Part shown: one piece after another, positions 2,841-30,411 of the stretch
Position numbering within the stretch: the first letter of the stretch is position 1
Layout: every line of letters starts with the position of its first letter
Assembly: GCA_965200205.1 (NCBI GenBank)
Contig: CBDAUI010000002.1
Location: 319,837-383,836, forward strand
Direction of reading: 5' to 3'
Source of the DNA: Candidatus Poribacteria bacterium
GTDB taxonomy: Bacteria > Poribacteria > WGA-4E > WGA-3G
Length of the DNA stretch: 64,000 bases
Made by a program: the position numbers and the translations under genes
Notes under the pieces: generated by a model
What the model saw: the letters and a program-made list of their open reading frames with translations, nothing else
The model's database searches: none
What the model was told of the DNA's origin: nothing

Positions 2841-3629
2841 GTGAAAAAGCCTATATTTCTGATTCTTATCGGTATTGGCGTTGTGTTGCTTGTTGTCGGT
2901 GTCGCCTTTGTGGTGCCGTGGTTCGGTCGAATGATGGAGGAGATGGATCAGTTCCATGCGCAGCAAGCGGAGCATAAACGCGAATTAAGAGCGTCCGCAA
3001 ACGAACCGTTGAACGAAGAACAAGAAAAACTGCTGGCACAACTGCTTGAAGTTTCACAAGAGATGGAAACATCTCAAAATGCAAACGATTTGGAAACGGT
3101 CTTGTCGAGTGAACCGTATCTCACCTATCTAAAAACGCAAGTTGGGCAGGATTACACAGATTTTCAGGCGTACATTGACGCGATGCCGACAGAAGGCATG
3201 AAAGCCGTTGCCCTCTCCAGAATTGAAGCCGTTCTCGGCACAGATAAAAACGATGAAGAATTACAGATTTGGCAGAACTACTATTTCGTTGTGCGAGAGT
3301 GGGGGACAACGGTGCAGGATCCGCTTGATAACATGAAAGAACTCAACAAACTCCAGCAGACACACCTCATAGAACCCCTTATGGCGCATAACCCAGAGGA
3401 TTTGTCCTCTAAAATCCTACAGATTGGGATGTCTTCTATGTTTATGACCGATGATAACAAAGTCTTTCAAGATGTTTGGCGTGGACGCTTAGAGACGCAC
3501 GGGGAACAGGAAGGATTGCTGCGGTGTGCCGTTGCATCGCCGAGTGAATTCGCGCTCATGCGTTCGTTTTTTGCGGATATGAACGCATTCCAAACATGGA
3601 TACTTACACGTCCTGAACCTGAAAATTAG
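2841..3629 (+). CDS. Membrane-anchored protein, family-B paralog 2
   Basis: AAGGAG 2827-2832 plus GTG. TM helix IFLILIGIGVVLLVVGVAFVV. SSEPYLTYLKTQVGQDYTDF and EGLLRCAVASPSEFALMRSFFADMNAFQTWI match 1796..2653. Confidence 0.7.
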   Translation: MKKPIFLILIGIGVVLLVVGVAFVVPWFGRMMEEMDQFHAQQAEHKRELRASANEPLNEEQEKLLAQLLEVSQEMETSQNANDLETVLSSEPYLTYLKTQVGQDYTDFQAYIDAMPTEGMKAVALSRIEAVLGTDKNDEELQIWQNYYFVVREWGTTVQDPLDNMKELNKLQQTHLIEPLMAHNPEDLSSKILQIGMSSMFMTDDNKVFQDVWRGRLETHGEQEGLLRCAVASPSEFALMRSFFADMNAFQTWILTRPEPEN

Positions 3630-3824: not shown

Positions 3825-3875
3825 CGATTTATGCACCTTTTTCGATCCCAAATCGGATCATTAATTATAAAAGGG
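3825..3875 (+). promoter_or_regulatory. Conserved 51-nt upstream element, copy 1 (before the ABC-2 permease)
   Basis: CGATTTATGCACCTTTTTCGATCCCAAATCGGATCATTAATTATAAAAGGG. It is 40/51 identical (ungapped hand alignment) to 5414-5464. Confidence 0.45.
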
Positions 3876-3991: not shown

Positions 3992-5404
3992 ATGGAGTTT
4001 GATATGTTAATGACTATGATTCAAAAAGAGGTTATGCATCATATTCTCAGCGTCCGATTCGTCGCGCTGCTTGTGATGTGTCTCCTACTCGTTCCGCTGA
4101 CACTTACTACCAATTACCGAAATTATCGCCAGAATTTAGTGGATTACCAAGAAGCCGTTAAACTCGCAAACATTGAAGAAACTAAGATGAACCCGGGGAT
4201 GCCACTGGATCCAGAACTCGAAGTTTCCAAACTCATCCTCAAACCGTCCCCTTTGAGTGTCTTCGCAAATGGATTAGCAGATGCACTGCCGAGCTATCTC
4301 GGTATAACTCGCAATGGGGTTACACAAGGGGCACCCGCCTTTGTGTCCTCTCTCTCCTATATGTTAGGGCATCTCGATTTTCTGTTCGTCGTCGGTACCG
4401 TCTTCAGTCTCCTCGCGTTGCTGTTTACATTCGATGCGGTTGCGGGGGAACGAGAAGCGGGTACCCTTCGGATTACGTTAGCCAATTCCTTGCCGCGCGA
4501 CCTATTTTTATGGAGCAAATTGATTGGCGGATACGTGGTGTTTATCGTTCCGTTCTTGGTATCATTGCTGTTCGGCTTATTGGTGCTTGTCTGGCAAGGA
4601 TTTCCGCTCGGAGAACCTGAAATTTTTCCGAGGGTTCTCGGTTTATCTATCATCTCGCTGCTCTACATCGGTGTATTTTTCGCAATCGGCACAGTGATTT
4701 CCACTTACTTAGACAATTCTAAAACGGCACTCATCGTTGCCTTTACTATCTGGGTGTTCGCGGTTTTGATTACGCCCCGCGTCGGGTTCCTCGCTGCCAA
4801 ATTTATCGCACCAACGCAAACTTCACAGAGCGTCTATATGGAAAAAACAGCCATGCGCGATGATTTTAAGGCAGCACTCGATAAGGAACAACATAAAATG
4901 GTCATGGAAATGCCCCGCAATGAGAGAGGACACATACACATAAGCGGCGAGATGTCTAAAAAAATTACTGAACGTATGAAACCCTTTGAAGCGGAATACA
5001 GAGCGAAATTCCAGAACTATGCGAACGAATTGGATCGAAATTATAAACGTGAAATCGAACGGCAAGAACAGTTAGGGCAGATGCTCTCTCGAATCACGCC
5101 GACATCTTCCTTAATTTATATCACTACAAACCTGACACAGACCGGAAAGGGAAAAAGAAACACCTATTTTAAAACGGGTAATCGCTATTATGAGATGCTC
5201 TATACAGATTTATTCAGTAAAATTATAGATTATACGCATAGTAGGCAAAACAGACCCGTCCAAATTACACAACCACCATCTTTGGAGATAACGACTTTAG
5301 GAGAAACGCTCCGTCAATCAGCGATAGATGTGATGCTGCTCTGCTTCTTTGCAGTCATATTGACAACCGTGGCGTTTCTGAAATTCTTCCGGTCAGATAT
5401 TTGA
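3992..5404 (+). CDS. ABC-2 family transporter permease with a long coiled-coil segment and terminal TM helix
   Basis: N-terminal TM helix, then a multi-TM core with FDAVAGEREAGTLRITLANSLPR typical of ABC-2/NosY-like permeases. A charged helical stretch (aa about 290-400) and a last TM helix follow. No ATPase gene is adjacent. Confidence 0.65.
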   Translation: MEFDMLMTMIQKEVMHHILSVRFVALLVMCLLLVPLTLTTNYRNYRQNLVDYQEAVKLANIEETKMNPGMPLDPELEVSKLILKPSPLSVFANGLADALPSYLGITRNGVTQGAPAFVSSLSYMLGHLDFLFVVGTVFSLLALLFTFDAVAGEREAGTLRITLANSLPRDLFLWSKLIGGYVVFIVPFLVSLLFGLLVLVWQGFPLGEPEIFPRVLGLSIISLLYIGVFFAIGTVISTYLDNSKTALIVAFTIWVFAVLITPRVGFLAAKFIAPTQTSQSVYMEKTAMRDDFKAALDKEQHKMVMEMPRNERGHIHISGEMSKKITERMKPFEAEYRAKFQNYANELDRNYKREIERQEQLGQMLSRITPTSSLIYITTNLTQTGKGKRNTYFKTGNRYYEMLYTDLFSKIIDYTHSRQNRPVQITQPPSLEITTLGETLRQSAIDVMLLCFFAVILTTVAFLKFFRSDI

Positions 5405-5413
5405 GGCGCAGTA

Positions 5414-5464
5414 CGATCTATGCACCCTTTCTGCCTCAACATCGTATCTTTAATTATAAAAGGG
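5414..5464 (+). promoter_or_regulatory. Conserved 51-nt upstream element, copy 2 (before sigma-propeller gene 1)
   Basis: CGATCTATGCACCCTTTCTGCCTCAACATCGTATCTTTAATTATAAAAGGG. TGCACC (5421-5426) is followed after 16 nt by CGTATC. TATAAAAGGG starts 34 nt after the T of TGCACC, as in the other copies. Confidence 0.45.
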
Positions 5465-5611
5465 CGAAATAACGTTTCAAATTTAAGGGTTTTATTTTAC
5501 TGTCGTGTTTGGTATACTTTCAAATAGGAAAGTGACTCAATATTGAGAGAGCTCGTCTATTTACCGCCCGGTCTGTCTAAGCTCGGCGGAATATAATCAT
5601 GGAGTATTCTG

Positions 5612-8611
5612 ATGGAAAGAGAAAACGATGTTCAACTAATTCGTAGAATTTTATCAGGCAATGATGAGGCGTTTAGTGTTTTAGTCCGAAAGCACCAAAA
5701 GAGTATTCACGCGCTGGCGTGGCGAAAGGTCGGTGATTTTCACATCGCTGAAGAGATTACACAAGACACTTTCCTTCAGGTATACAAGAAACTCGCGCAG
5801 TTAAAGAATCCGAACCAGTTCGCGGGATGGATTTATGTGATTGCCAATCGGCTTTGCCTTAAATGGCTGGAAAAAAATAAATTGGCGATGCAATCATTAG
5901 ACGACACACCTATAGAAGAAATCGAGGAAATCGCTTATACGGACTATGTATCTGAGCAACGGCAAACAGAGGTTGCCGAGGATCGTCACGAACTCGTCAA
6001 AAAACTGCTATCAAAGCTGCCGGAAAGTGAACGCACGGTGGTGACGCTCTTTTATCTTGGAGAGATGACCGCGCAGGAAATCGGGAAATTCTTAGGGGTG
6101 TCGGTCAACACAGTTAAAAGTCGACTTCGCCGGGGCCGCGAGCGTTTACAGGAACGGCAAGAAGAACTGTTGGTTAGCGAAACACTCGGAAGTATCGCCT
6201 TCCCTGCCCAAGTAACTGAGCGTATCATGCAAGAAGTCGCCGATATGAAACCGATACCGCCTCCGGTCGGCAAACCTTTGCTACCGTGGGCGGCTCTTGG
6301 AACTGCTGCTGTCCTTGTCATATTGCTGCTCGGTGCAAGCAACCAATACCTTGCGCGTTTTCAGAAGCCGTACAGTTTTGAAGCACAATCTGAACCGACT
6401 ATTGAAATTATTGACACGCCTATTGTTCTTGATATTGTGGCGAAACCAGCGGTGCGAAATCAAGTGGGTCGCGCTGCCTCCGTCGGTAAAAACAGCGGTA
6501 CCGGCACACAAGTCTCTACAACGACGACAGCATCTGTTACACTGGAAGATTCGGCTAAGTTTTCGACTTCGCAGTGGACACACGGCAGCGCGCCGCCAGG
6601 GGGGCACGTCCTTGACATCTTCGCTACATCCGAAGGGACCGTCTATGCCGTCGCCCCGATAGGCATATACAGATTAAGAACAGACGCGACCGCGTGGACA
6701 CGTATCAACACGGATATTCCAATCGGCAAATCACTAATGCCGATGGCAGAACATGGTGGTATTCTTTACATAGTATCTACCGATGAAATATTTGCTTCAG
6801 GTGATAGCGGTGAAACGTGGCGGACAATGGGTCCCAGGCCCAAGGGACACGCTGTTGGTTTCATCATCATGGATGAAGTAGGGGCGAGGTCACCTCGTTC
6901 CTACACGATGTATCTTGCCTTTAGAGATGAAGGGATTTATCGATCTACTGACGGTGGGACACAATGGAACTTATTTAATGACGGATTGGCAAACAAAACG
7001 ATTTCCACAGTCGCTGCTGTTGGAAAAACAGTATTTGCTGGCACAGCGCGCGGGCTCTATCGTCTCAGTTCAGGCACTTGGCAAAAATTACCGGTGGAGA
7101 CATCAAGAGCCATTTACGCCTTGGCGGTGTCTGAGAATAATCTCTATATTGGGACGGGGCCCGAGCTATTGGGATTCACGCCAATAACGATAGAACAAGA
7201 AGTGCCAAAGAATGAGTCGCATACCCTCAAAATTTTCCATTCGGCTGACTTCGGAGCGTCGTGGACACAAATAACACCGAGTTATAAATCTGACGATTCG
7301 GTGATACCATCTGGTATAAATATATGGGCGGCTGGTGAAACGCTCTTTGTATCGAGTGCTGAGCATCAATATTGTTCAACAGATCATGGACAAACCTGGA
7401 CAGAATCTATAGGAGATTCCGACCTACTTATGACCAATAGGCTTCCAACTGTAACGGTGAACGAGAACACATTTTACAAAGCTGGACCATTCGGTATCTA
7501 TCGCTCAACTGATGGCGGGAAATCGTGGCCCCTACTGATAGATGGGATGGTGGGAACCAGGCTAAAGGATTTGGTTGCGTTCAACAACAAATTATACGCA
7601 CATAATGGTTATGCGGTGTATCAATCAACTGACGAAGGTGTGTCTTGGAAAAAACTCTCAATTTCCGAGGCGACTTTTGGGAAAGTGATTACGATTACAC
7701 ATACAATTACACCTGAATTATCAAAACCGGAAAGCGCGCGTATCTCCCACTCCTTCAATTCAAAATTGGTAGTTGATGGCAATAATCTTTATCTTATTTC
7801 ACCTGAAGATGACAACTTGCAAATTTTCCGCGTATCTACAGATGGCAATATACGCATTCCCGTTCAAAGCATACCCGTTTCTGATAATAAAGCATTATCT
7901 CGTAATTTACGAGCAGATAGCGAGGCAGCAAGAGGGATTGACTCATCTGAGGGTTCTGAAACAGAGCATCACGCAATCGTCCCAATCGTTCCACCGCCTA
8001 TACGTGGAGAGGAAGCGAGAACCAGACTGATCGTAGTCCGTAACGATGTATTCTACGCTGAGCACAGACGGACGCTTTTTAAATGGAGACTTGGCGAATC
8101 GAAATGGACAAACACAGGATTAACAGACATGAGCCAAGAGTCTTATGACAACGACAGCCAGGATATCAAATTAGCGGTTTCGAGAGAAACCGTCTATGTC
8201 GGCAAACGCGATGGTAAACTGTTTCAGTCGCTTGATGAAGGGAGCAGCTGGAGAGATGTTACGCCGAGTCTACCGCTTCACTTTGCCCGTTTCAAAGAGA
8301 TAACCTTTGTCGGTTCAACAGTTTATGTCGCAACTGACGGAGGTGTCTTGAGTTCCGAAACCGGTGAACACTGGCGCGTGCTAACCGATAGTACGGGTAC
8401 ACGTCCGATTATAGACAGATTTGCTGTGGAGGGTCCTACAGTTTATGGTGCTGGCAATGTTGGAGTCTATCGCTTGGATACCGGTAAGCAATGGAAACAA
8501 ATTTCTTCAGAAGCACTCGGTGAAACTGTCGCGCTCGCCGTCATTAACGATAAACTCTATAGTGCTATCAAAGATCAAGGGATATTTCACATCTCGCTTG
8601 CCGAAGAATAA
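5612..8611 (+). CDS. ECF sigma factor fused via one TM helix to a double BNR/Asp-box beta-propeller ectodomain
   Basis: Sigma-70 region 2 (DFHIAEEITQDTFLQVYKKL...GWIYVIANRL) and region 4 (LPESERTVVTLFYLGEMTAQEIGKFLGVSVNTVKSRLRRGRERL). TM helix LLPWAALGTAAVLVILLLGA. Seven clear Asp-boxes: SGDSGETW, STDGGTQW, SADFGASW, STDHGQTW, STDGGKSW, STDEGVSW, SLDEGSSW. Confidence 0.85.
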   Translation: MERENDVQLIRRILSGNDEAFSVLVRKHQKSIHALAWRKVGDFHIAEEITQDTFLQVYKKLAQLKNPNQFAGWIYVIANRLCLKWLEKNKLAMQSLDDTPIEEIEEIAYTDYVSEQRQTEVAEDRHELVKKLLSKLPESERTVVTLFYLGEMTAQEIGKFLGVSVNTVKSRLRRGRERLQERQEELLVSETLGSIAFPAQVTERIMQEVADMKPIPPPVGKPLLPWAALGTAAVLVILLLGASNQYLARFQKPYSFEAQSEPTIEIIDTPIVLDIVAKPAVRNQVGRAASVGKNSGTGTQVSTTTTASVTLEDSAKFSTSQWTHGSAPPGGHVLDIFATSEGTVYAVAPIGIYRLRTDATAWTRINTDIPIGKSLMPMAEHGGILYIVSTDEIFASGDSGETWRTMGPRPKGHAVGFIIMDEVGARSPRSYTMYLAFRDEGIYRSTDGGTQWNLFNDGLANKTISTVAAVGKTVFAGTARGLYRLSSGTWQKLPVETSRAIYALAVSENNLYIGTGPELLGFTPITIEQEVPKNESHTLKIFHSADFGASWTQITPSYKSDDSVIPSGINIWAAGETLFVSSAEHQYCSTDHGQTWTESIGDSDLLMTNRLPTVTVNENTFYKAGPFGIYRSTDGGKSWPLLIDGMVGTRLKDLVAFNNKLYAHNGYAVYQSTDEGVSWKKLSISEATFGKVITITHTITPELSKPESARISHSFNSKLVVDGNNLYLISPEDDNLQIFRVSTDGNIRIPVQSIPVSDNKALSRNLRADSEAARGIDSSEGSETEHHAIVPIVPPPIRGEEARTRLIVVRNDVFYAEHRRTLFKWRLGESKWTNTGLTDMSQESYDNDSQDIKLAVSRETVYVGKRDGKLFQSLDEGSSWRDVTPSLPLHFARFKEITFVGSTVYVATDGGVLSSETGEHWRVLTDSTGTRPIIDRFAVEGPTVYGAGNVGVYRLDTGKQWKQISSEALGETVALAVINDKLYSAIKDQGIFHISLAEE

Positions 8612-8741
8612 CCGATATAGATGTTGACAGACGTTCTGAACACCGTACAGAGCGTTCGGATGTTCATTGCGGCTCCTACTCCCTCTAAAAGAGAAGTGTT
8701 AAGACTCGGATTCAGGCAACATATATATAGCTCATTGTTCG

Positions 8742-8776
8742 CGTTCCCACTGTTCCCGCGGTGGGAACGTTTTTTA
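8742..8776 (+). terminator. Rho-independent terminator
   Basis: 9-bp stem CGTTCCCAC (8742-8750) / GTGGGAACG (8761-8769) followed by TTTTTT. Confidence 0.65.
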
Positions 8777-8819
8777 TTGGGGGTTAATGTGCTAATTTTT
8801 CATTAAAATTCATTTTTTT

Positions 8820-8867
8820 CGATTATGCACCCTTTCCAATCTAAAAATGTGTCACATAATATAAAGG
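8820..8867 (+). promoter_or_regulatory. Conserved upstream element, copy 3 (before sigma-propeller gene 2)
   Basis: CGATTATGCACCCTTTCCAATCTAAAAATGTGTCACATAATATAAAGG. TGCACC is at 8826-8831 and TATAAAGG starts 34 nt later. The downstream ATGTTTCAAGTTAGG matches ACGTTTCAAATTTAAGG after copy 2. Confidence 0.4.
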
Positions 8868-9079
8868 AATAATATAAAATAATGTTTCAAGTTAGGAAAC
8901 TTCAATTTCGTATTCTCTTTGGAAAGAAGCACGAGGAAGCAAAATAGTTATACCCAAGCTTGAGACGATGAAATTAGCAATCCAATACTCCGGAATCTTC
9001 GATATTTTACATCTCTGGCTACCGAACAACGGAGAATTTAAAGGCATCCCAATTTATTTGTCCATCATGGAGGTATCTT

Positions 9080-11977
9080 ATGTTACAAGATGATGTCCAA
9101 TTGATTCGCAGAACTTTATCAGGTGATGAATCTGCATTTGGCCCCTTAGTCCAGAAGCACCAAAAGGGTGTTCACGCGCTTATCTGGCGGAAAATTGGGG
9201 ATTTTCATTATGCTGAAGAACTTACCCAAGATACTTTCCTGCAAGCGTACAAAAAACTCGGGACATTGAAGGATCACAACCATTTTTCTGGGTGGCTCTA
9301 TGTCATCGCCAATCGGCTTTCCATTAATTGGATCCGAAGGCAGAAACGGACGATGCAATCGTTAGAGGCCACTCCGGTCCAAAAGGTTGAGGAATCCTCT
9401 TATAAACATTATATGTTTAATCAACGCGAGACAGGAGCTGCGGAGCAACGCTCTGAAACCGTCAAGAACATTCTTAAAAAACTGCCAGAGAGTGAGCGAA
9501 CGGTGGTAACGCTCTATTATCTCGGCGAGATGACAGCGAAAGAGATTGGCAACTTCTTAGGTGTATCCATAAACACAGTTAAGAGTCGGCTTCGCCGTGG
9601 ACGGGAGCGTCTACAAGAGGCAGAATCCTTAGTCCATGAAGTACTCGGCAGGGTACAATTACCCGCCGATCTGACAGAACGCATTATGCGACAAGTCGCC
9701 GATATTAATCCGATAGTGCCTCCGGCTGGAAAGCCATTGTTACCGTGGGCAGCTTTGGGTACAGCGACAGTTTTGGTGCTGTTGATGTTAGGGACGAGTT
9801 ATCAGTATCTGGCACGCTTTCAGCAGCCCTATAGTTTTGAAGCACAATCTGAACCCACGGTTGAAATCGTTGAGGCACCTATAGTTATTGACACACAAGC
9901 GAAACGGGATTTACGGAACCAAGCGGGACGTTTCGATGCAATGGGTAAAAACCCCGGTGCCGGTCCGCAAGTTTCAGAACCTGTTCTGCTTGCGGCAGCG
10001 CAGATAGAAAAGGAGACGCGGCCATCAGCAAAGCAGCAATGGATACAAGCGAGTGGTCCAGAAGAAGAGCGTTCAGTATCAGATTTATTGGTAAGTTCTT
10101 CGGGAGATGTCTATGCGACTTCAAAAATCGGTATCTACAGATTAGCACCCGATGCTCCGGCGTGGACACCCGTGAGCCCAACTCCACCAGAAGCATCTGT
10201 AGATAACCACGGAATACGGATGGCAGAAGGAAACGATACCTTCTATCTTGTTTTTCCGAATGGCGTGTTCGCTTCAAAAGATAGAGGCGAGACCTGGATA
10301 AAACTTGGCGAGCGTCCGAAGGGAGTTGCTGTTGGCATGGTGGTAACAGATGATGCATTATACCTCGCACTTCGAGATGAAGGCATTTTCCGGTCCACAG
10401 ATGCTGGTAAACAGTGGACACCCCTTAACTACGAAATAGAAGACAGCCGTATTGGTGCAATAGCTGCCGTTGAAAACAGAGTGTTTATCGGGACAAACAA
10501 GGGACTCTATCGTTTGCATTCAGAGACGTGGGTAAAATTACCGGTTACCACGAAAATGGTTCACTCTTTATCTGTCTCCGGAAATAATCTCTATGTCGGG
10601 ACAGGACGCGACCTTTCTCAATTAGACACCCCTGAAGGAAAGCGGGCGCAATTGGAAGAGCTTATGAACAGCATCAATTCCGATGTCCGGAGGTGGGAGG
10701 TTTTCTACTCAACCGATTTGGGTGATTCATGGACCGATATAACGCCAACAAGCGAATCAAACATGATGAAAATCTCGTCGGGTGTTAAAGTTTTGGCAGC
10801 CGGACAGAGTATTCTGATATTAGGAATGGCAAGTTTCCACTCAACCGACGGTGGAAAAACGTGGACAGAATTGGGGCGGGATGCAATGACGTTGGCGGGT
10901 CGAATTCCTGCAGTAGCAGTGAATGAAAAAACCTTCCTCAAGGCCGATGTCCCTGGGCTGATACGCTCAACCGATGGCGGCAAATCGTGGCATTCATTGA
11001 CGAATGGGATAATCAGCACTTCAATACGCAACTTAGTAGGACTGAAAAATGAGTTTTACACAAGTACATCCAAGGGTATTGCAAAATCGGCTGATGGCGG
11101 TGCGTCTTGGAAAAATCTTGACGTGAATTCCGGTGAACTCACCCTGAAACCAGCAGAGAAACCTGACAGTCTGATTTTCCACAAATTAGCAATCGCTGAT
11201 GGTGTACTTTATGGATCTGCAGCGACTTTAGTCCCTGCGCATAAATTGCATATTTACCGTCTCTCGGTGAATCGAAACGGGTTCGTCTCTATCCAAGGGG
11301 TCCCCGCTCTTGCAGCCGCGCCTTCCGCCATGAATATAGTAGATTGGGCAGATAAAACGACCCTTCGCGAAAACTATCCAAGCGCGTTTGCAGTCAGTGG
11401 TGAGACGTTCTATGCGGAATACATGCGGCAGCTGCTCCGGTGGAAACGCGGAGAGTCGGAATGGTTTAATACTGGACTCATAGATACAGACGAATCCTTA
11501 AACAATAAGGGTGACGGTCCGAGGGAGCTTAAACTTGCTGTTTCTGATGAAACCGTCTATGCAGGAAAACGTGATGGTCACCTTTTTCAATCGCTCGACA
11601 GGGGTGATACATGGAAAAACGTGACACCAAACCTACCCTTACGTTTTGAGCGTTTCAACGATATAACCTTCGCGGGTTCAACAGTGTACGTCGCTACTGA
11701 CGCGGGGGTGTTGACATCAGAAGCCGGTGAACGTTGGCACATAATCACGGATACGGAGGGAACACGTACGATCATCAACCAAATAACTGTAGATAACAGG
11801 GTCGTTTATGGTGCAAGTGACGAAACAGCCTATCGCTTGAATCATCGCAACAAATGGGAAAAGATCACGCCAGAAGTGCCAGATAGTGTTACCGCTCTCG
11901 TGGCTAATAACGATAGACTTTATATCACCACTGAACATCGAGGGATGTTCCACATCTCTTTTGAGAAAGGAGAGTAG
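9080..11977 (+). CDS. ECF sigma factor fused via one TM helix to a double BNR/Asp-box beta-propeller ectodomain (paralog 2)
   Basis: Same architecture as 5612..8611. Region 2 DFHYAEELTQDTFLQAYKKL...GWLYVIANRL and region 4 LPESERTVVTLYYLGEMTAKEIGNFLGVSINTVKSRLRRGRERL. TM helix LLPWAALGTATVLVLLMLG. Asp-boxes SKDRGETW, STDAGKQW, STDLGDSW, STDGGKTW, STDGGKSW, SADGGASW, SLDRGDTW. Confidence 0.85.
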   Translation: MLQDDVQLIRRTLSGDESAFGPLVQKHQKGVHALIWRKIGDFHYAEELTQDTFLQAYKKLGTLKDHNHFSGWLYVIANRLSINWIRRQKRTMQSLEATPVQKVEESSYKHYMFNQRETGAAEQRSETVKNILKKLPESERTVVTLYYLGEMTAKEIGNFLGVSINTVKSRLRRGRERLQEAESLVHEVLGRVQLPADLTERIMRQVADINPIVPPAGKPLLPWAALGTATVLVLLMLGTSYQYLARFQQPYSFEAQSEPTVEIVEAPIVIDTQAKRDLRNQAGRFDAMGKNPGAGPQVSEPVLLAAAQIEKETRPSAKQQWIQASGPEEERSVSDLLVSSSGDVYATSKIGIYRLAPDAPAWTPVSPTPPEASVDNHGIRMAEGNDTFYLVFPNGVFASKDRGETWIKLGERPKGVAVGMVVTDDALYLALRDEGIFRSTDAGKQWTPLNYEIEDSRIGAIAAVENRVFIGTNKGLYRLHSETWVKLPVTTKMVHSLSVSGNNLYVGTGRDLSQLDTPEGKRAQLEELMNSINSDVRRWEVFYSTDLGDSWTDITPTSESNMMKISSGVKVLAAGQSILILGMASFHSTDGGKTWTELGRDAMTLAGRIPAVAVNEKTFLKADVPGLIRSTDGGKSWHSLTNGIISTSIRNLVGLKNEFYTSTSKGIAKSADGGASWKNLDVNSGELTLKPAEKPDSLIFHKLAIADGVLYGSAATLVPAHKLHIYRLSVNRNGFVSIQGVPALAAAPSAMNIVDWADKTTLRENYPSAFAVSGETFYAEYMRQLLRWKRGESEWFNTGLIDTDESLNNKGDGPRELKLAVSDETVYAGKRDGHLFQSLDRGDTWKNVTPNLPLRFERFNDITFAGSTVYVATDAGVLTSEAGERWHIITDTEGTRTIINQITVDNRVVYGASDETAYRLNHRNKWEKITPEVPDSVTALVANNDRLYITTEHRGMFHISFEKGE

Positions 11978-12084: not shown

Positions 12085-12942
12085 ATGTCAACAATTTTAC
12101 GTGTAACGTTTTTCACACTTTCCGTTTTTTTTATACTTGGCTCCTCAGCTATCTCTGACGATCAGGCGAGCAGTAAAGACGCTGAAGAAGCTGCACGTCA
12201 ATTAATAAGGCGTTCAGAAGTGTTCGCGGAACTGCGTCGAATGTTCCCAAACCCAATCTTAGATGAGGACTTCAAAACCCTAAAACAGGTGACCCGTTCT
12301 AAAGTCTATTTGGATTATCTGAAGTCTGAATTCCCTACAGATGAACCATTTGAGACACTTGAGGCGTTTATTAATGTCGCACCGCCTCCTGTCGAAAAAT
12401 ACCGAGATTTTTTAAATAAACACTTTGAAAACGTAACTGAGGCGGATTTTTTAGGTATTCATCAGTTGACGCTGCTTGAACGGCGTGCAAATATGATGTT
12501 GCTGGCTTCACATGAGACAGGGAATGCCAAGTACCGTCGCGCATCGTCGCAACTATCGGCATTCAAGCTTCTGCCGGACCATTTAAGGCGAAAACTTGAA
12601 ACAATTGATCCTACCACTATTTGGTCATTCCGTCTCAAGCGAGACCACGCAAGACTTTTGTGGGAGTCGCGGTTTCGAGAAGCAGATGGAACAGAACAGA
12701 GGAGGTTCATAGATTTTAGAATGCAATTTGCGTTAGAAACTGAGAAGGCAGACACGGATTGGATACAAGCGAAATTTGAAACCTATGGACAAAATGAAGG
12801 GTTATTATGGATTGCCGTTGAAAACCCAATTCTCATCGGAGAAATTATCGCAAATTTTCCGCCGCCGCGGACAGAACTATTTTTAACTTGGGTTGAACAA
12901 ACGTTTATTTTCAAACTGTTAAGCTTAGATTATACAAAGTAA
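12085..12942 (+). CDS. Secreted protein, family-B paralog 3 (divergent)
   Basis: Signal-like N-terminus VTFFTLSVFFILGSSAIS. KVYLDYLKSEFPTDEPFETLEAFINVAP and NEGLLWIAVENP...LFLTWVEQ are colinear with the family-B motifs. Confidence 0.6.
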   Translation: MSTILRVTFFTLSVFFILGSSAISDDQASSKDAEEAARQLIRRSEVFAELRRMFPNPILDEDFKTLKQVTRSKVYLDYLKSEFPTDEPFETLEAFINVAPPPVEKYRDFLNKHFENVTEADFLGIHQLTLLERRANMMLLASHETGNAKYRRASSQLSAFKLLPDHLRRKLETIDPTTIWSFRLKRDHARLLWESRFREADGTEQRRFIDFRMQFALETEKADTDWIQAKFETYGQNEGLLWIAVENPILIGEIIANFPPPRTELFLTWVEQTFIFKLLSLDYTK

Positions 12943-12955
12943 GGGGTGACATCTT

Positions 12956-13990
12956 ATGTGGAAAGGTTTTCTAATTCTTGGATTACTCCTCACAGTGGTA
13001 GCCGGGTACCTCTTTTGGGCAAGCCATCGCGAACAGAATATGCAGCAGGTCGTGCCGGGTTCCGCTACTGTTGAAGAACGTACAATAGGTGATAGTCCGG
13101 AAATCCGTACTAAAAAGATAGAGACCGATGTTCAAAAAACTCAAGAACTCAGCCAACCGTTGGATCCCGATAGCACATCAGAACCAGAAATGACGGATCG
13201 GGATAAAAAAATAGCAGCACTTGAGAAGACCCCCGAGTATGCAGCTTTTTTAGAAAAGAAATCGGGTAGTTTGTATGATCTGCTTGACTTTTATGCGTCC
13301 CACGGAATAGAGGTTGACAAAAACGCTTACCATGTGTTATTTGACAGGATTTTTAAAGAGAACTTTCCGGGTGAGACCCCAGCATCTGTTGAACCGAAGC
13401 TGCGACAAAAGTTGATTAATCGCCTCAGCGCAAGCGATACAGATGACGATTTGTACGTGGTGATGGATTTTATCGTGGACGAAAAGCATAGCGCTTGGGG
13501 CAGCTTGCATTTTGAAACTGATAGCGTTGCCTACTCTAATTGGGTAATGGGGGTTCTAAATAATCACCAGTCAACCGCAGCCGAGCCTGTTATCGTAGAA
13601 ACAGTGCCAAATATTTTACCTACGGAGGGCGGATCTTCTAATGCGCGTTCATTGGACGATATTGGCGCGACCTCCTCAGAACAACGCCCTATTCCAAGCA
13701 CAGAGCCACCTGTTCTTGAGGCAGGCGATGTACTTACCGAAAGTGGCACCGACATTGACGCAGAATTCCGAGAACTGATCGAATCAACGCTCTCGGAAGC
13801 ACCGAAATTGCCCACTTCGGTTGAATTTGAAAAGCGTCTTCGTGAAAGTTTTTCGCCAAATCGATTTAACGCCGCAATGCAAACCTTGAATCGTTACGGA
13901 CTCAAAGATGGACTTCGTAGACTTAAAGCATCAGACCCAGAGGTTGGGAAACACTTTGAACGCTTCATACAAGCGGAGCAGGAGAATTAA
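12956..13990 (+). CDS. Membrane-anchored acidic protein, family-A paralog
   Basis: AAGGGG plus ATG, 13 nt after the previous stop. TM helix FLILGLLLTVVAGYLFWA, then an acidic/Ser-Thr-Pro-rich middle. The C-terminal 40 aa match the C-terminus of 1..524. Confidence 0.7.
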   Translation: MWKGFLILGLLLTVVAGYLFWASHREQNMQQVVPGSATVEERTIGDSPEIRTKKIETDVQKTQELSQPLDPDSTSEPEMTDRDKKIAALEKTPEYAAFLEKKSGSLYDLLDFYASHGIEVDKNAYHVLFDRIFKENFPGETPASVEPKLRQKLINRLSASDTDDDLYVVMDFIVDEKHSAWGSLHFETDSVAYSNWVMGVLNNHQSTAAEPVIVETVPNILPTEGGSSNARSLDDIGATSSEQRPIPSTEPPVLEAGDVLTESGTDIDAEFRELIESTLSEAPKLPTSVEFEKRLRESFSPNRFNAAMQTLNRYGLKDGLRRLKASDPEVGKHFERFIQAEQEN

Positions 13991-22133: not shown

Positions 22134-23699
22134 ATGAGAAATAACAATGCTGAACTGATTCAACGTACCCTTGAAGGCGATGATGCTGCTTTTGCATGCT
22201 TGGTTAAGAAGTACCAGAAGCGGGTTCACGCACTTGCATGGCGGAAGATAGGGGATTTCCATATCGCTGAAGATATTACGCAGGAGACGTTTCTACAAGT
22301 CTATCGGAAATTAGCGACGCTGAAAGATCCGAATCAGTTTCCGGGGTGGCTTTATGTCATCGCCAATCGCCGCTGCCTCGCGTGGCTCCGAAAGAAACGG
22401 ATCCAGACGGAACAATTGGAGGAAGTGGATATAACAATGACTGAGAGTACTTCATACTCCAGACACGTCGCTGCAGAGCAGTCAGAAAATGCAACCGAAA
22501 CTAAACGTGAACTGGTTAAAAACTTATTGGCGAAGTTGAAGGAAAGCGATCGCACCGTTCTGACGCTCTACTACTTCGGTGAAATGACCTACGCGGAGAT
22601 AAGTGAGTTTTTAGGCGTATCCGTCAATACCGTCGCGACGCGTGTTCACCGTGCCCGAGAACGCTTAAAGCAGTACGAACCCCTGATTCAAGAGGCACTC
22701 GGCAGTTTCCAACTGTCTCCGACTTTAACAGAGAACATTATGCGCGAAATTCCGCGTATCAAACCCTTACCACCTACCGGCAGCAACCCACCGGTCATTC
22801 CATGGGCAATCGCGACTTCAACTGTTATTCTCGTTGTGATGATGCTCGGCATCAGCAACCAATACTTAGCACGTTTCCAGCAGCCCTACAGTTTTGATGC
22901 CACATCTGAAATGACAGTCGAGATTATTGACACCGCTATTGTCCTTGATATCACATCAAAGCCTGATGTGCGAAATCAGGTTGGGGCGGCTGCTATCGCT
23001 GGTGAAGGTGGTACTGACGGATCGCAGACTTCTAAGACGCTTTTGGGGACCGCTATAGAACAAAATTTCGCTTTTTTTCGAAGGCAAACGGATCCAATAA
23101 CAATCGGGAAGTCGATGACATGGGTGCATGGAGGCGATAAATGGGACCCCTCAATGGCAATAGTCCGGACAGAATTCAACGGTGGAATCACATACAGCTC
23201 AAAAGAATACGCCGGTCCCCAAACAATACCAGAACTGATGAACGTATTCGATGAAATTTACGACCTTAAGCACTCAGACACGACAGTGACTGTATTTTCA
23301 AGGGAAAGTATCGCTGAAATCAATCCGCACGAGGTGTGGGGGTTACACGCGTGGCAGGAATTGCTTTCAAAGAAAGGTATCTCCAGTCAATTCACGCTTA
23401 CAGAGATAGATGCACGATATCCCCGAAATACATGGCTTCAACGCCTTTTAGAGAGAAGCATCATTATAGAAAACCTCGCGGATTATTTTTTTATTATGGC
23501 ACACCGGTATCAGTTGGCATTTTTGGAGGACAATCCGTATCTCTGGGAAACCGAAATTCAGGATGTCTCATTGACAAAAGCATGGGAAGCCTATAAAACC
23601 GAGAGTGTGTCATTGACAAAGGCATGGGAAGCCTATAAAACCGTCTATATTGATGAGTTGATAAGATACTATACCGAGCGTCGGAAATCCAGAGATTAA
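22134..23699 (+). CDS. ECF sigma factor fused via one TM helix to an uncharacterised ~250-aa ectodomain
   Basis: Region 2 DFHIAEDITQETFLQVYRKL...GWLYVIANRR and region 4 LKESDRTVLTLYYFGEMTYAEISEFLGVSVNTVATRVHRARERL. TM helix VIPWAIATSTVILVVMMLGI. It has the shared juxtamembrane module but no Asp-boxes. ATG 22134 is preferred over TTG 22131. Confidence 0.85.
   Translation: MRNNNAELIQRTLEGDDAAFACLVKKYQKRVHALAWRKIGDFHIAEDITQETFLQVYRKLATLKDPNQFPGWLYVIANRRCLAWLRKKRIQTEQLEEVDITMTESTSYSRHVAAEQSENATETKRELVKNLLAKLKESDRTVLTLYYFGEMTYAEISEFLGVSVNTVATRVHRARERLKQYEPLIQEALGSFQLSPTLTENIMREIPRIKPLPPTGSNPPVIPWAIATSTVILVVMMLGISNQYLARFQQPYSFDATSEMTVEIIDTAIVLDITSKPDVRNQVGAAAIAGEGGTDGSQTSKTLLGTAIEQNFAFFRRQTDPITIGKSMTWVHGGDKWDPSMAIVRTEFNGGITYSSKEYAGPQTIPELMNVFDEIYDLKHSDTTVTVFSRESIAEINPHEVWGLHAWQELLSKKGISSQFTLTEIDARYPRNTWLQRLLERSIIIENLADYFFIMAHRYQLAFLEDNPYLWETEIQDVSLTKAWEAYKTESVSLTKAWEAYKTVYIDELIRYYTERRKSRD
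23565..23642 (+). repeat. In-frame 42-nt tandem duplication inside the sigma-fusion gene
   Basis: 36-nt cores at 23565-23600 and 23607-23642 differ at 2 positions. They encode VSLTKAWEAYKT twice. Confidence 0.85.
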
Positions 23700-23880: not shown

Positions 23881-24010
23881 TTCTAAGCAAAAACACCTAC
23901 AAACCGTAATTTTGGTGTGGACATTCCACTATTTTCAACTTATATGAGGGAAAATAACGGAAATATTATTGTTTGACAAATGCTCTGGAAACAGAGGAAA
24001 GGATACACAA

Positions 24011-25327
24011 ATGAAAGCAGTCCTGACAGTGGCAATAGTGCTAAGTATTCTATTAACTTCTGCTTATGCAGATACACCCACAGAAAAGTCGAATGAAGAC
24101 TCTCCTACCAAACAAAACAAGAAAAACATAGAACTTTGCACGCAAAATTTAGTTACGATTGGCAAAGCACTTCAAACCTACCGAAAAGAGCACGGGAAAC
24201 TTCCACTGTGGCTTTCAACTATGCATGGTAAATACCTGGCGGACGAAAACAATCTTCTCTGTCCCGCAGATGAAAATGGTGGTAAGCCAAGTTATTACCG
24301 TAGGACTGATCCGGAATTGCCCGTAAGTTACGACTACGCACAGTTCGATGCCGGTTTTCAGGAATTGACAGCCGAGAAACACTATATTTATGGTGATGTC
24401 ATACCGATAGTCCGTTGCGGGCATCACGCGAATGAAGATTTTACGTGTTTAAACTTAAATCTCTCTGCTGACATTTATCGGTCAACCGCTGCTTGGGCAA
24501 TATACGAACCAGAGGCGATGTATGGAGGTTTTGAAAAAGCAATTGCGACGCTTGAAGTCAAACTGCAGAACACTCCAGATGATAAACGGATCTTCGAGTT
24601 GTATCCTGCACTCGTCCGTCTCTACGTCAAAACCGGGCAAGAACAAAAAGTCGATATTCTTATCAACAATTTCAAGGCAGTCATGGACTCCGAACACATT
24701 AAAGACAACTTCACCCTCGGTGATATGCTTGAGATGGTGGGTCGGCATAGGGATGCGCTTCAGGTCTATGAGGGATTGGAAAAACAGGGATCGAAAAACC
24801 GATATATTTTCCAGAAACTTGCCCAAGTTCATGAAAAACTCGGCAATGTAGAGATAGCGAAGGCGTATCACATCAAGTTTGATCCAGTGTTAGCGTTGAT
24901 AGGGAAATCTGTTCCTGATTTTTCTGCGACTGACTTTGATGGTAAACCGATCTCACTTCGCGATTACCGCGGAAAAGTCGTTTTGCTCGATTTTTGGGCA
25001 GTATGGTGTTCACCGTGTATTGACGAAATTCCAAATATCAAAAAGGTTTACGATACCTATAAGAATGCAGGATTTGAGGTCATCGGTATCAGCCTTGATC
25101 ATCATAAAGACAAAGTTCGGGATTATATCAAAGCGAATAACATTCGTTGGCGGCAGATTGTTAGTGGGAAAGGTTGGGACAGTCCAGTTTCACGACAGTA
25201 TAACATTCGTTCGATTCCGGCACCGTTGCTCATTGACCGCGAAGGCAGACTCATCTCACATAACGCAAGAGGGGCAGATTTGGAGAGACTCGTGGCGGAA
25301 GCGGTGCGGGATAAATCGACGGACTAA
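24011..25327 (+). CDS. Secreted TPR-like / TlpA-ResA family thiol:disulfide oxidoreductase
   Basis: Signal peptide MKAVLTVAIVLSILLTSAYA, a helical repeat middle, and a C-terminal thioredoxin fold with WCSPC (DFWAVWCSPCIDEIP). ATG 24011 (GGAAAGGA upstream) is preferred over TTG 23969. Confidence 0.8.
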   Translation: MKAVLTVAIVLSILLTSAYADTPTEKSNEDSPTKQNKKNIELCTQNLVTIGKALQTYRKEHGKLPLWLSTMHGKYLADENNLLCPADENGGKPSYYRRTDPELPVSYDYAQFDAGFQELTAEKHYIYGDVIPIVRCGHHANEDFTCLNLNLSADIYRSTAAWAIYEPEAMYGGFEKAIATLEVKLQNTPDDKRIFELYPALVRLYVKTGQEQKVDILINNFKAVMDSEHIKDNFTLGDMLEMVGRHRDALQVYEGLEKQGSKNRYIFQKLAQVHEKLGNVEIAKAYHIKFDPVLALIGKSVPDFSATDFDGKPISLRDYRGKVVLLDFWAVWCSPCIDEIPNIKKVYDTYKNAGFEVIGISLDHHKDKVRDYIKANNIRWRQIVSGKGWDSPVSRQYNIRSIPAPLLIDREGRLISHNARGADLERLVAEAVRDKSTD

Positions 25328-26639: not shown

Positions 26640-26706
26640 TTTTGGACTTGATGGATTGTGATATGTTGTATTAGATTATGGCAAACCGCGATAAGTGGAG
26701 TACACG

Positions 26707-27942
26707 ATGAACGTTGAGAACCGAACGCTTTTTATTTCTGACAATCTTGACATTATGCGCGGGATAGACACCGATTGCATAGATTTGATTTATCTTGATC
26801 CACCTTTTAACTCTAAAAAGCAGTGGAAAGCCCCGATCGGTTCGCCCGCCGAAGGTGCTACATTCAAAGACATCTGGACGGATGAAGATGTCAAAGATGG
26901 CTGGTATAGCGAGATCGCTGAAAACTATCCACATATTCATCAGATCATATTGGCAGCTGAGCATACCTATGATCACTCTATGATGATTTATCTCATGGCG
27001 ATGGGGATCCGTCTCATTGAGATGAAACGGATATTGAAACCCGCCGGGTGCATTTACCTACACTGCGATCCGACTGCGAGTCATTACCTGAAACTCGTGA
27101 TGGATTCGATTTTCGGGAAAAATAACTTCCAAAGCGAAGTAATCTGGGGTTATCGGACACAGGGCGTTAGCAAGTCAAGTTGGCCTAAGAAACATGAGGT
27201 GCTCTTGCATTACAGTGGCGGTTTGAAACCGACATTTCATCCGCAAATGCAAAGAATCTACTACCAGAAACCGTTTCGCCACACCAAAATAGATGAAGAC
27301 GGTAACCACTATGCCGATGTATATGTGCGCGATGTCTGGGACGACGACCCAGAGACGAGAGCTCTCATCAGCCAATCGAAAGAACGCACCGGGTGGCCAA
27401 CGCAAAAACCACTCGCACTCCTTCATCGGATCATCAAAGCCTCAACAAATGAAGGTGATATGGTATTAGACCCCTTCTGCGGTTGTGCAACTGCCTGCGT
27501 CGCAGCCGAGCAACTCAACCGACACTGGAGCGGTATTGATGTATCGCCATCCGCAGAAGTTATCACGAAAATTCGGCTTGACGAAGCCAGCCAACAAGGC
27601 TCTTTGTTCTCATCTATTCAGATGTCAGATGTTATCGTGACGAGCGAAGCACCCATAAGAACGGATACAGACGCAGCCGCAGAGCAACAAAAACTACGGC
27701 TACCGAACTACCGAGTCCACAAGAATACGCTTTACGGCATCCAAGAGGGTTACTGCAACGGTTGTCGAAGGCATTTTGAAATCCGGAACCTCACCGTTGA
27801 TCACATTCGACCGCAGATTGACGGTGGCACTGACCATATAAAGAATCTACAACTGCTTTACGCTACGTGCAATTCAACGAAAGGCACAGGCACACAATCA
27901 CAGCTTATTGAAAGACTCAAAGAACAAAGCGTACTGAGATAG
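26707..27942 (+). CDS. Beta-class (N6-adenine or N4-cytosine) DNA methyltransferase fused to a C-terminal HNH nuclease
   Basis: Motif IV DPPF (IDLIYLDPPFNSKK) precedes motif I (VLDPFCGCATACVAAEQL). The C-terminus carries an HNH domain, CNGCRRHFEIRNLTVDHIRPQIDGGTDHIKNLQLLYATCNSTKG. GGAG 26697-26700 plus ATG 26707. Confidence 0.85.
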   Translation: MNVENRTLFISDNLDIMRGIDTDCIDLIYLDPPFNSKKQWKAPIGSPAEGATFKDIWTDEDVKDGWYSEIAENYPHIHQIILAAEHTYDHSMMIYLMAMGIRLIEMKRILKPAGCIYLHCDPTASHYLKLVMDSIFGKNNFQSEVIWGYRTQGVSKSSWPKKHEVLLHYSGGLKPTFHPQMQRIYYQKPFRHTKIDEDGNHYADVYVRDVWDDDPETRALISQSKERTGWPTQKPLALLHRIIKASTNEGDMVLDPFCGCATACVAAEQLNRHWSGIDVSPSAEVITKIRLDEASQQGSLFSSIQMSDVIVTSEAPIRTDTDAAAEQQKLRLPNYRVHKNTLYGIQEGYCNGCRRHFEIRNLTVDHIRPQIDGGTDHIKNLQLLYATCNSTKGTGTQSQLIERLKEQSVLR

Positions 27943-28004
27943 CAAGTCCGAAATTTAACTATAGGACTTGTTGTTTCAAATTTGCACACAGAAACAATAA
28001 AAGA

Positions 28005-28529: not shown

Positions 28530-28550
28530 AATAACACCTCCCAGAATTGG

Positions 28551-29204: not shown

Positions 29205-29407
29205 CCGGAATATGTGAGCTGCAGTGTTTCTAAGTAACCTTTCAACATCCGCCCGGGGACCTTTGCCCCAATTAGAAGGTGAACAATATGTGCATTGTGC
29301 TGTATTTGATTTTCAGTGTTCATTTTACTCCTAAATAAAAATTGTCGTGAACATTTATCAAGCCCAAAACCGCTTATTGCGTTCTTTTCTGATGAATGAG
29401 AGCAAAA

Positions 29408-30097: not shown

Positions 30098-30156
30098 AAT
30101 AAAAATCCTCCAAAGAGAGAATGGCAGTACATTAGTGAGTTGAAGCGTGTTGATGC

Positions 30157-30372: not shown

Positions 30373-30411
30373 TGCTTATCCTCCTTTATCATCTTCTCCT
30401 TTGAGAAAGAG

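Follow-up and report, generated by a model that had tools for sequence, protein, structure and literature searches.

A 64,000-nucleotide (nt) stretch of the genome of a sponge-associated Candidatus Poribacteria bacterium (assembly GCA_965200205.1, contig CBDAUI010000002.1, positions 319,837 to 383,836; hereafter the window) encodes two tandem proteins, here named P1 and P2, in which an extracytoplasmic function (ECF) sigma factor, a transmembrane helix and a long region of Asp-box repeats form one polypeptide. We consider it reasonably likely that P1 and P2 are single-chain transmembrane signal transducers that sense a glycan-type ligand, release their sigma domain by proteolysis and are autoregulated. 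The pair had been singled out in an original prediction made from the sequence without database searches. Here, it was followed up by database and profile searches, structure prediction and comparison with related loci.

Architecture of the two fused sigma factors

The reading frames of P1 and P2 are uninterrupted, and Pfam, NCBIfam and hydropathy agree with the order of sigma domain, hydrophobic helix and propellers that the original prediction had assigned to them (Table 1). Pfam places Sigma70_r2 at aa 24-90 of P1 and aa 23-91 of P2, and Sigma70_r4_2 at aa 127-179 and aa 128-178, respectively. Both proteins score well above the cut-off of the NCBIfam model TIGR02937 (sigma70-ECF), with 94.8 and 95.7 bits versus 42.9. 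They contain sigma-2 and sigma-4 only, joined by a short linker and without regions 1.1 or 3, as is characteristic of ECF (group 4) sigma-70 factors, and NCBI already names these proteins 'sigma-70 family RNA polymerase sigma factor'. The start codons are backed by a GGAG that is conserved eight bases ahead of them and by the N-terminal sequence MERENDVQLI, which the orthologues conserve.

A single Kyte-Doolittle peak of P1, at aa ~221-245, exceeds the cut-off used, while the top peak of P2 lies at aa ~218-240 and a weaker one (1.51) is found near aa 568 in the propeller region. The proposed transmembrane helix is thereby supported in both proteins, and in P1 additionally by a modeled helix at aa 228-247. 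Exactly seven S-x-D-x-G-x-x-W boxes follow in each protein, the number originally counted (P1: aa 396, 445, 544, 589, 632, 672 and 873; P2: aa 399, 439, 544, 588, 630, 670 and 838). Identity between P1 and P2 is 47% end to end, 65% in the sigma part and 40% in the ectodomain. P1 contains just two cysteines, at positions 82 and 588, and P2 lacks cysteine altogether. An intrinsic-terminator-like hairpin ends P1, and P1 and P2 therefore constitute separate tandem transcription units.

Table 1. Positions of the fused sigma genes, their parts and associated elements in the window.
Feature	Position (nt)	Strand	Description	Support
Promoter-like motif before ABC-2 permease gene	3832..3859	+	TGCACCTTTTTCGATCCCAAATCGGATC, then ATTAATTATAAAAGGG	
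ABC-2 family permease	3992..5404	+	470 aa, six hydrophobic segments	Pfam ABC2_membrane_2, 4.6e-31
ECF-type (sigma-W-like) motif of P1	5421..5448	+	TGCACC-N16-CGTATC	
Invariant block in ~190-nt P1 leader	5507..5518	+	GTTTGGTATACT	Identical in 15/15 aligned leaders
P1, fused ECF sigma factor	5612..8611	+	999 aa	Uninterrupted ORF
P1 ECF sigma domain, predicted cytoplasmic	5612..6154	+	aa 1-181, sigma-2 and sigma-4	Pfam, NCBIfam; pLDDT 80-90
P1 linker	6164..6241	+	aa 185-210, two short helices, motif (Q/F)xP..(L/V)TExIM	AlphaFold2, conservation
P1 transmembrane helix	6275..6346	+	aa ~222-245; conserved K221, P222, P225, G241	
P1 conserved juxtamembrane segment	6347..6481	+	aa 246-290, SNQYLARFQKPYSFEAQSEPTIEIIDTPIVLD..KPAVRNQVGR, predicted disordered	
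P1 Asp-box beta-propeller region, predicted extracytoplasmic	6569..8608	+	aa 320-999, 14 blades, GH74-like tandem propellers	
Intrinsic-terminator-like hairpin after P1	8741..8770	+	13-bp stem, then T run	
ECF-type motif of P2	8826..8853	+	TGCACC-N16-TGTGTC	
P2, fused ECF sigma factor	9080..11977	+	965 aa; sigma aa 1-181, transmembrane helix aa ~218-241, propellers aa ~320-965	
P3, third chassis member	22134..23699	+	521 aa	tblastn with P1 sigma domain
Secreted ResA/TlpA-like thioredoxin-fold protein	23969..25327	+	Signal peptide, WCxxC	

P1 was modeled with AlphaFold2 from a 60-sequence alignment (mean pLDDT 72.7). Sigma-2 (aa 1-90) and sigma-4 (aa 120-181) are modeled confidently on either side of a disordered linker (aa 91-118). 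They are followed by two short helices at aa 185-194 and 201-210 (pLDDT ~76-84), a low-confidence helix at aa 228-247 corresponding to the transmembrane segment, and a disordered stretch (aa 248-318). The remainder, aa 320-999, consists of beta strands that were counted as 14 four-stranded blades, with two disordered inserts at aa 687-714 and 753-802.

A conserved chassis with exchangeable ectodomains

A search with P1 among 5.8 billion proteins returned more than 7,400 matches at E <= 1e-10. The top 120 clusters, which come from many independent assemblies, have lengths of 980-1012 aa throughout and cover 100% of P1 at 76-83% identity; the two members of several pairs share the same long contig and are thus paralogues. 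A word-index-free search with aa 200-999 of P1 yielded 305 representatives (50% identity) at E <= 1e-30. Among the best 150 of these, 58 begin with the sigma domain (residues ~1-185), and their identity in the ectodomain falls to as little as 29%. Candidatus Poribacteria is the source of every named protein and of the 38 genome loci retrieved, which include complete chromosomes and the single-cell genome WGA-3G. An assembly or frameshift artefact joining a sigma gene to a secreted-propeller gene, for which we found no supporting point, has a negligible chance of being the explanation: the same continuous frame is present in more than 100 independent full-length clusters, in the 38 genome loci and in three paralogues within the window. 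The sigma-propeller fusion is genuine, as the original prediction had assumed, and, judged from the sequences, it is under selection.

The third of these paralogues, P3, corrects one element of the original prediction, in which two such proteins were described: the window has three. The sigma domain of P3 is 58% identical to that of P1, and the 40 residues after the transmembrane helix are 77.5% identical. P3 shares the sigma, linker, transmembrane and juxtamembrane parts, while its remaining C-terminal part is unrelated to P1. This C-terminal domain has no Pfam match and no similarity to the neighbor at 2841-3629, and a P3 model built by AlphaFold2 with database homologues was unusable (mean pLDDT only 47). 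In most sister loci, the domain is also found as N-anchored proteins of 250-350 aa encoded between the ABC-2 permease and fused ECF genes. P3 itself lies directly after a MacB-like permease gene. Its C-terminal domain contains an in-frame 42-nt tandem duplication at 23564-23643 (1.9 copies, 94% match) that repeats the peptide SLTKAWEAYKT; most full-length orthologues measure 508-515 aa, and the consensus has a single copy. Two gene copies resembling the P3 C-terminus, at 8889-9476 of locus L002 and 14899-15540 of locus L011, contain two in-frame stops each and look like decaying paralogues.

The common chassis comprises the first ~300 aa, namely the sigma domain, the linker, a KPxPPPxGKP spacer, the transmembrane helix and the extracytoplasmic juxtamembrane motif SNQYLxRFQxPYSFEAxSEPTIEIxDxPIVLD..KPxVRNQxGR. 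Among the sigma-bearing members of at least 600 aa (n=166), a transmembrane-like peak is present in 165 and the [FY]QxPY[SN][FL] motif in 158. Linker residues L192, T202 and I205 are nearly invariant, and among the cysteines of 60 members only C82 is. The juxtamembrane segment has no Pfam or PDB match. Because it is conserved across paralogues with unrelated ectodomains, it may represent a common transduction or cleavage module. A profile of the linker-transmembrane-juxtamembrane part gave no significant match among the PDB sequences; a weak one to a Notch3 transmembrane peptide reflected hydrophobic composition only and was discarded.

The ectodomains found on this chassis, in related loci and in a second database search, include LRR, AhpC/TSA thioredoxin-like, Kelch, WD40/PD40, CarboxypepD_reg and HXXSHH domains, a TonB-receptor-barrel-like segment, shorter BNR regions and domains without a Pfam match. 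WD40 is carried by one other chassis member, P0410, and is not detected by Pfam in P1 or P2. Two of the ectodomain types are also encoded nearby as free-standing proteins. One is the P3 C-terminal domain described above; for the other, the product of 23969-25327 is a free-standing homologue of the ectodomain in a class of fused sigmas of 714-716 aa.

A shared promoter motif and a candidate regulon

An ECF-type promoter motif precedes both P1 and P2. The strict pattern matches the window twice, at 5421 and 8826, versus 0.02 matches expected, and related loci 37 times, versus 0.05 expected from shuffles. Every match lies on the coding strand upstream of a gene. The genes behind the motif encode fused ECFs of the BNR and LRR types, ABC-2 permeases, PF06439 proteins and proteins resembling the P3 C-terminus. 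The sigma-W consensus of Bacillus subtilis is TGAAAC-N16-CGTA, and TGCACC-N16-CGTATC has the architecture of an ECF promoter and resembles this consensus. We infer that the motif is the cognate promoter of the fused sigmas.

Relaxing the -10 element (CGGATC) revealed a third copy in the window, at 3832, in front of the ABC-2 permease gene. The motif also precedes ABC-2 permease genes in L001, L003, L019 (twice) and L027, and an ABC-2 permease homologue is located upstream of the fused ECF gene in ~30 of the 38 Poribacteria loci. The ABC-2 permease gene is a probable member of the regulon. Two other roles of the permease were considered, that of a PrsW-like site-1 protease and that of an anti-sigma factor, and both were rejected for lack of a supporting domain in Pfam and NCBIfam. 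Downstream of the fused ECF genes, several loci contain an MsbA/HlyB-like ABC exporter gene pair and a few a MacB-like permease gene.

In seven loci (L001, L006, L011, L012, L013, L023 and L027), the motif precedes genes for secreted proteins of ~250 aa upstream of the fused ECFs. Two of these proteins, from L006 and L001, were scanned and contain a PF06439 (3-keto-disaccharide hydrolase / lectin-like) domain. At the corresponding place, the window has no gene for such a protein.

In the sister loci, conservation in front of the P1-type genes sets in sharply ~190 nt ahead of the ATG, at TTATGCACCCTTTC-N-TCAAAATCGTATCTTTAATTATA. The invariant leader block (Table 1) is shared by the 5' leaders of P1-type genes in L002-L032. 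A second promoter, of the housekeeping type, may have its extended -10 in this block; a sigma-70 promoter scan did not pick up this proposed proximal promoter. Rfam gave no match on 5380-9100, and a riboswitch or attenuator in the 5' leader was rejected after RNAalifold predicted 18 pairs with no compensatory change.

A GH74-like fold with a probable binding function

To characterize the ectodomain, the P1 model was compared with the PDB using Foldseek. The best matches were GH74 xyloglucanases (E 1e-20 to 1e-16, 14-16% identity), and the top 20 were all GH74 structures with target-normalised TM-scores of 0.36-0.58 (best 0.55-0.58). They were followed by the periplasmic sensors of the Bacteroides hybrid two-component systems BT4673 and BT4663 (E 2e-16 to 6e-13), with low TM-scores of 0.22-0.30. 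A profile of 20 ectodomains likewise ranked GH74 first (3.3e-17), ahead of Ycf48 (1.5e-6) and sortilin (4e-5), with a HMMER alignment to GH74 that covered Asp-box fragments only. The 14 blades of the P1 model correspond to the two tandem seven-bladed propellers that define GH74, and the earlier guess of two propellers fits this count and the fold match.

Pfam matches in the P1 and P2 ectodomains are BNR, Sortilin-Vps10, PSII_BNR and DUF6242. Of the domains expected beforehand, Sigma70_r2, Sigma70_r4_2 and BNR were recovered as such, but the Sortilin-Vps10 and PSII_BNR matches cover only Asp-box fragments of the models; for Sortilin-Vps10, they span model positions 2-59 (P1) and 3-67 (P2) of 446. 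Because Foldseek and the profile both rank GH74 first, the Sortilin and Ycf48 labels reflect common Asp-box blades, and the overall fold is GH74-like. The ten-bladed propeller and 10CC module of Sortilin/Vps10 proteins were not found, the ectodomains having one cysteine in P1 and none in P2. Neither Reg_prop nor a kinase module was detected in P1 or P2 by Pfam.

The resemblance to GH74 xyloglucanases such as 2cn2, 6mgl and 1sqj extends to the two tandem seven-bladed Asp-box propellers. These xyloglucanases, in contrast, are soluble secreted enzymes with catalytic Asp motifs, whereas no Asp is conserved at the corresponding blades of the P1/P2 family. In GH74, the N-terminal catalytic Asp (D35 of 1sqj) is part of the motif ARTD(I/V)GGAYRW, which we verified in 1sqj, 3a0f, 6p2m and 7kn8. 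Two blades of P1 show an analogous pattern, VYAVAPIGIYRL (aa 344-355) and VYGAGNVGVYRL (aa 944-955), and the residue at the Asp position is variable across the family. Of these, hhalign favors VYGAGNVGVYRL, placing the GH74 N-terminal blade on the last blades with a probability of only 28%. The mapping covers the N-terminal position only and finds, by low-confidence alignment, that the GH74 catalytic Asp motif is conserved in the family at neither of the two candidate blades. In the ectodomains of 60 diverse members, acidic residues reach 90% conservation only at the aspartates of the Asp-boxes.

Since GH74 xyloglucanases are the top fold and profile matches, and since the NCBIfam model 'F510_1955 family glycosylhydrolase' also matches, although at 114-119 bits it stays under its cut-off of 175, we considered whether P1 and P2 could be anchored periplasmic GH74-like hydrolases whose sigma-like domain is a degenerate anchoring remnant without a transcriptional role. 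This is very improbable. Conservation is highest in the sigma domain, where many positions of regions 2 and 4 are nearly invariant, and a conserved ECF-type promoter precedes the genes. Furthermore, the catalytic motif and any conserved acidic residue outside the Asp-boxes are missing, and the same chassis carries non-enzymatic LRR, Kelch and WD40 domains.

We therefore favor, with moderate confidence, propellers that would bind and not hydrolyse their ligand, and that probably have the GH74 fold without GH74 catalysis. Their nearest functional analogue is found in the BT4663 and BT4673 sensors, in which double seven-bladed propellers outside the membrane bind glycans and signal to a cytoplasmic transcription module on the same polypeptide. 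The output of these systems is a histidine kinase, receiver and AraC module, whereas that of P1 and P2 is a sigma factor, and the resemblance is at the level of the fold only. A glycan is the most plausible ligand in view of the fold shared with GH74 and the hybrid two-component sensors, the lost catalytic motif and the regulon candidates related to carbohydrates.

Absence of an anti-sigma factor

The original prediction had stated that no FecR/RskA/ZAS-type anti-sigma ORF is present nearby, and our scan of every ORF of at least 200 aa in nt 1-25,400 likewise found no canonical anti-sigma gene. Five unannotated neighbors (603-1799, 1796-2653, 2841-3629, 12085-12942 and 12956-13990) have their sole hydrophobic segment at residues 1-25 and therefore no cytoplasmic domain, and the HxxxCxxC motif is absent from all five. 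The intergenic gaps of 107-468 nt are too short for another gene. Within the fused proteins, P1, P2 and P3 show no FecR, RskA or zf-HC2 match in Pfam (E <= 0.1 or 0.001), the linker-transmembrane-juxtamembrane segment has no Pfam or PDB match, and P1 and P2 contain no HxxxCxxC motif. The distance between sigma-4 and the membrane is ~40 residues in both.

The linker aligns locally to residues 42-75 of B. subtilis RsiW, with shuffle p-values of 0.004-0.018 for the three paralogues; the aligned stretches are ...VEAPADFTANVMAKL... in RsiW and ...VQLPADLTERIMRQV... in P2. The linker is possibly a vestige of an RsiW-like anti-sigma factor, and the alignment suggests a descent from a SigW/RsiW-like pair that would have lost its zinc-binding anti-sigma core.

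The closest solved sigma structure is that of B. subtilis SigW (5wuq, 1.3e-22). P1 and P2 share with the SigW-RsiW system (ECF30) the promoter architecture and the weak linker alignment. SigW and RsiW are, however, two proteins, the latter with a ZAS anti-sigma domain and a small ectodomain, whereas P1 and P2 are single chains. RsiW is removed by regulated intramembrane proteolysis. The cut-offs for SigW equivalogs are not reached by P1 and P2, which score 106.7 and 108.2 bits versus 209 for PRK09641 and 90.7 and 98.2 bits versus 243 for TIGR02948, and neither gene is followed by an RsiW-type anti-sigma gene.

Comparison with known fused sigma factors

The novelty of the pair was overstated in the original prediction. 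The combination of sigma factor, anti-sigma function and sensor in one polypeptide belongs to a catalogued class that comprises the fused transmembrane forms ECF243 (IutY), ECF48, ECF52 and ECF53 as well as the extensions of ECF57 (PMC8999054). IutY of Pseudomonas putida is the only fused sigma/anti-sigma protein studied experimentally; its regulated intramembrane proteolysis has been demonstrated, the sigma being released by Prc and then RseP, and the same route is expected for ECF48, ECF52 and ECF53 (PMC8999054). Like P1 and P2, IutY unites an N-terminal ECF sigma, one transmembrane helix and a periplasmic sensor in one polypeptide, and by analogy it may serve as the mechanistic model for the release proposed here. 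In IutY, however, the anti-sigma domain of the FecR type is complete and is accompanied by a periplasmic FecR domain, and the protein is driven by a TonB-dependent siderophore receptor. The two proteins described here have no FecR or other anti-sigma Pfam domain, a short span between sigma-4 and the membrane, and a double propeller of ~680 aa.

The actinobacterial ECF52 and ECF53 (and ECF48) are similar in that an ECF sigma is fused to transmembrane segments and proteolytic activation has been proposed (PMC8999054). In one example, SCO4117, the sigma is also joined to an extracytoplasmic carbohydrate-binding domain (PMC8999054). ECF48, ECF52 and ECF53 carry a zinc-finger (ZAS-like) element and one or two transmembrane helices, whereas P1 and P2 have no HxxxCxxC motif and differ in phylum and ectodomain fold. 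ECF57 (formerly ECF01-Gob) of the Planctomycetes is likewise multi-copy per genome and has long C-terminal extensions of WD40-like repeats (PMC8999054, PMC7826278). Its repeats are WD40-like, those of P1 and P2 are Asp-box/BNR, and its sigma-2 and sigma-4 are described as linked by two conserved cysteines, one in each, compared to the single conserved C82 here, which P2 does not have. Duplicated sigma cores with unrelated C-terminal extensions have been described in Planctomycetes as a pattern of 'duplication and gene sequestration' (PMC7671368). Poribacteria show the same pattern, except that the unit duplicated in them adds the linker, the transmembrane helix and the juxtamembrane motif to sigma-2 and sigma-4.

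The membrane-tethered ECF sigma factor is thus an established design, and P1 and P2 vary this known design without introducing a new principle. A literature search, incomplete in its coverage, found no paper on ECF sigma factors in Poribacteria and none on BNR repeats in ECF extensions. Four features appear to be undescribed so far, namely the double-propeller sensor with its GH74-like fold, the lack of a recognisable anti-sigma domain, the conserved juxtamembrane module and the phylum-wide swapping of sensors on one chassis behind one promoter type.

Proposed mechanism of activation

P1 and P2 lack an N-terminal signal peptide, and their N-terminus has to gain access to RNA polymerase, from which we infer an N-in topology that places the propellers beyond the cytoplasmic membrane. 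As long as it is tethered, the sigma domain would be kept from productive binding of RNA polymerase. A periplasmic ligand, most plausibly a glycan, would bind in the propeller cleft and expose the conserved juxtamembrane segment to a site-1 protease, after which a site-2 intramembrane protease would cut the transmembrane helix with its Pro and Gly residues. The freed sigma domain would then take RNA polymerase to TGCACC-N16-CGTATC promoters. Its targets would be the sigma genes themselves, resulting in positive autoregulation, the adjacent ABC-2 permease gene and, in sister genomes, the genes for secreted 3-keto-disaccharide-hydrolase-like proteins. Release by regulated proteolysis, which was also put forward in the original prediction, is a reasonable proposal by analogy with IutY and SigW/RsiW.

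A sigma domain that is never released could also be active at the membrane, where the proline-rich linker of ~40 aa would let it recruit RNA polymerase in the manner of ToxR- or CadC-type regulators, with the ligand altering oligomerisation or conformation; transcription close to the membrane had likewise been named in the original prediction. The lack of an anti-sigma domain and of an adjacent protease gene, as well as the conserved proline-rich spacer between sigma-4 and the transmembrane helix, are in line with this arrangement. However, no sigma factor is known to us to function in a membrane-anchored state. The transmembrane helix has conserved, helix-breaking Pro and Gly residues and is followed by the conserved disordered segment, as would be expected of a proteolysis substrate, and IutY, the sole characterised fused sigma, is released by proteolysis (PMC8999054). 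Overall, we regard permanent tethering as unlikely.

We attach an equally small likelihood to control of the sigma by direct contact or conformation, through the propellers or the linker helices, with the anchor mainly serving localisation. Such regulation has been proposed for ECF41, ECF42 and ECF57, and the WD40-like repeats of ECF57 are proposed to act via protein interaction (PMC8999054). The linker helices of P1 are conserved and modeled with fairly high confidence, and one subfamily outside the window, the P0168 cluster, has retained sigma, linker helix and propellers in the absence of a transmembrane helix. In 165 of the 166 members, though, the transmembrane helix and ~70 disordered residues part the propellers from the sigma, so that contact across the membrane is impossible, and the presence of unrelated ectodomains on the same chassis makes a specific sigma-propeller interface unlikely. 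For at least the P0168 branch, regulation in cis is a live option.

Several observations weigh against the proposed sensing and proteolytic release in P1 and P2. The P0168 cluster (10 members, 935-943 aa) has neither the transmembrane nor the juxtamembrane part and joins the same sigma domain and linker helix directly to Asp-box propellers, which are presumably cytoplasmic; combining a propeller with this sigma therefore does not require a membrane step. An anti-sigma domain could not be detected, and the short linker leaves no room for one of class I, which gives no account of how the tethered form is kept inactive, and the similarity of the linker to helix 4 of RsiW is weak at the p-values given above. 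The release itself is drawn from analogy. The glycan ligand is suggested by fold resemblance and by the carbohydrate-related regulon candidates, and the argument from catalytic residues uses motif and profile alignments at 14-16% identity and the low hhalign probability. Finally, the promoter motif is assigned to these sigmas by its position and its resemblance to sigma-W promoters, and P3 has no TGCACC-N16-CGTATC motif upstream.

Other genes in the window

The five unannotated neighbors of the fused genes and a partial gene at the left edge (1-~540, frame +3) encode N-anchored, acidic and mostly helical proteins without a Pfam or NCBIfam match. They form at least two paralogue groups with shared motifs (1796/2841/12085, and 12956 with the left-edge partial gene), and homologues of some recur in sister loci L007, L019 and L023. 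In the same three loci, homologues of the product of 14156-16564 are found near fused ECF genes; this protein, of the outer-membrane type, combines a CarboxypepD_reg domain at its N-terminus with the Plug domain of TonB-dependent receptors, and no STN signalling domain was seen in it.

Further downstream, 26695-27942 encodes an N6/N4 DNA methylase fused to an HNH nuclease. The adjacent region 28000-32500 is low in GC (0.41 versus ~0.46-0.50) and contains three ORFs without a Pfam match and a DDE_3 transposase (31826-32446). Together, 26695-32500 may constitute a mobile or restriction-modification island. A sensor histidine kinase with HAMP, PAS, HisKA and HATPase domains is encoded at 35638-37449, with no adjoining response-regulator domain among the ORFs scanned. 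On the minus strand, 51803-56709 holds an SbcC/SbcD-like pair (1244 aa with AAA_23/SbcC_Walker_B and 389 aa with Metallophos) that coincides with a strong negative AT skew (-0.24 to -0.26).

Implications for the Poribacteria

These findings do not overturn the current understanding of ECF regulation. A family without a recognisable anti-sigma domain does, however, pose the question of whether tethering alone silences the sigma and whether intramembrane proteolysis alone activates it. As a compact chassis with swappable sensors and a defined promoter, it could serve synthetic biology as an orthogonal one-protein sensor.

More tentatively, Poribacteria might carry a plug-and-play receptor repertoire, in which one chassis has been recombined with at least nine extracytoplasmic domain classes, many of which would also exist nearby as free-standing secreted proteins. 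The chassis would then be a streamlined SigW/RsiW-like descendant in which the anti-sigma domain has been lost and tethering alone inhibits; as a whole, we view this extended picture as possible but doubtful. If the near-identical promoters seen for the BNR-type and LRR-type genes examined here hold across the classes, many different cues from host or matrix, such as sponge glycans and proteins, would feed into a single autoregulated regulon. In the context of sponge symbiosis, the family ties 'eukaryote-like' repeats (LRR, Kelch, WD40 and BNR) directly to transcription, which makes these proteins candidates for host-matrix sensing by an uncultivated symbiont.

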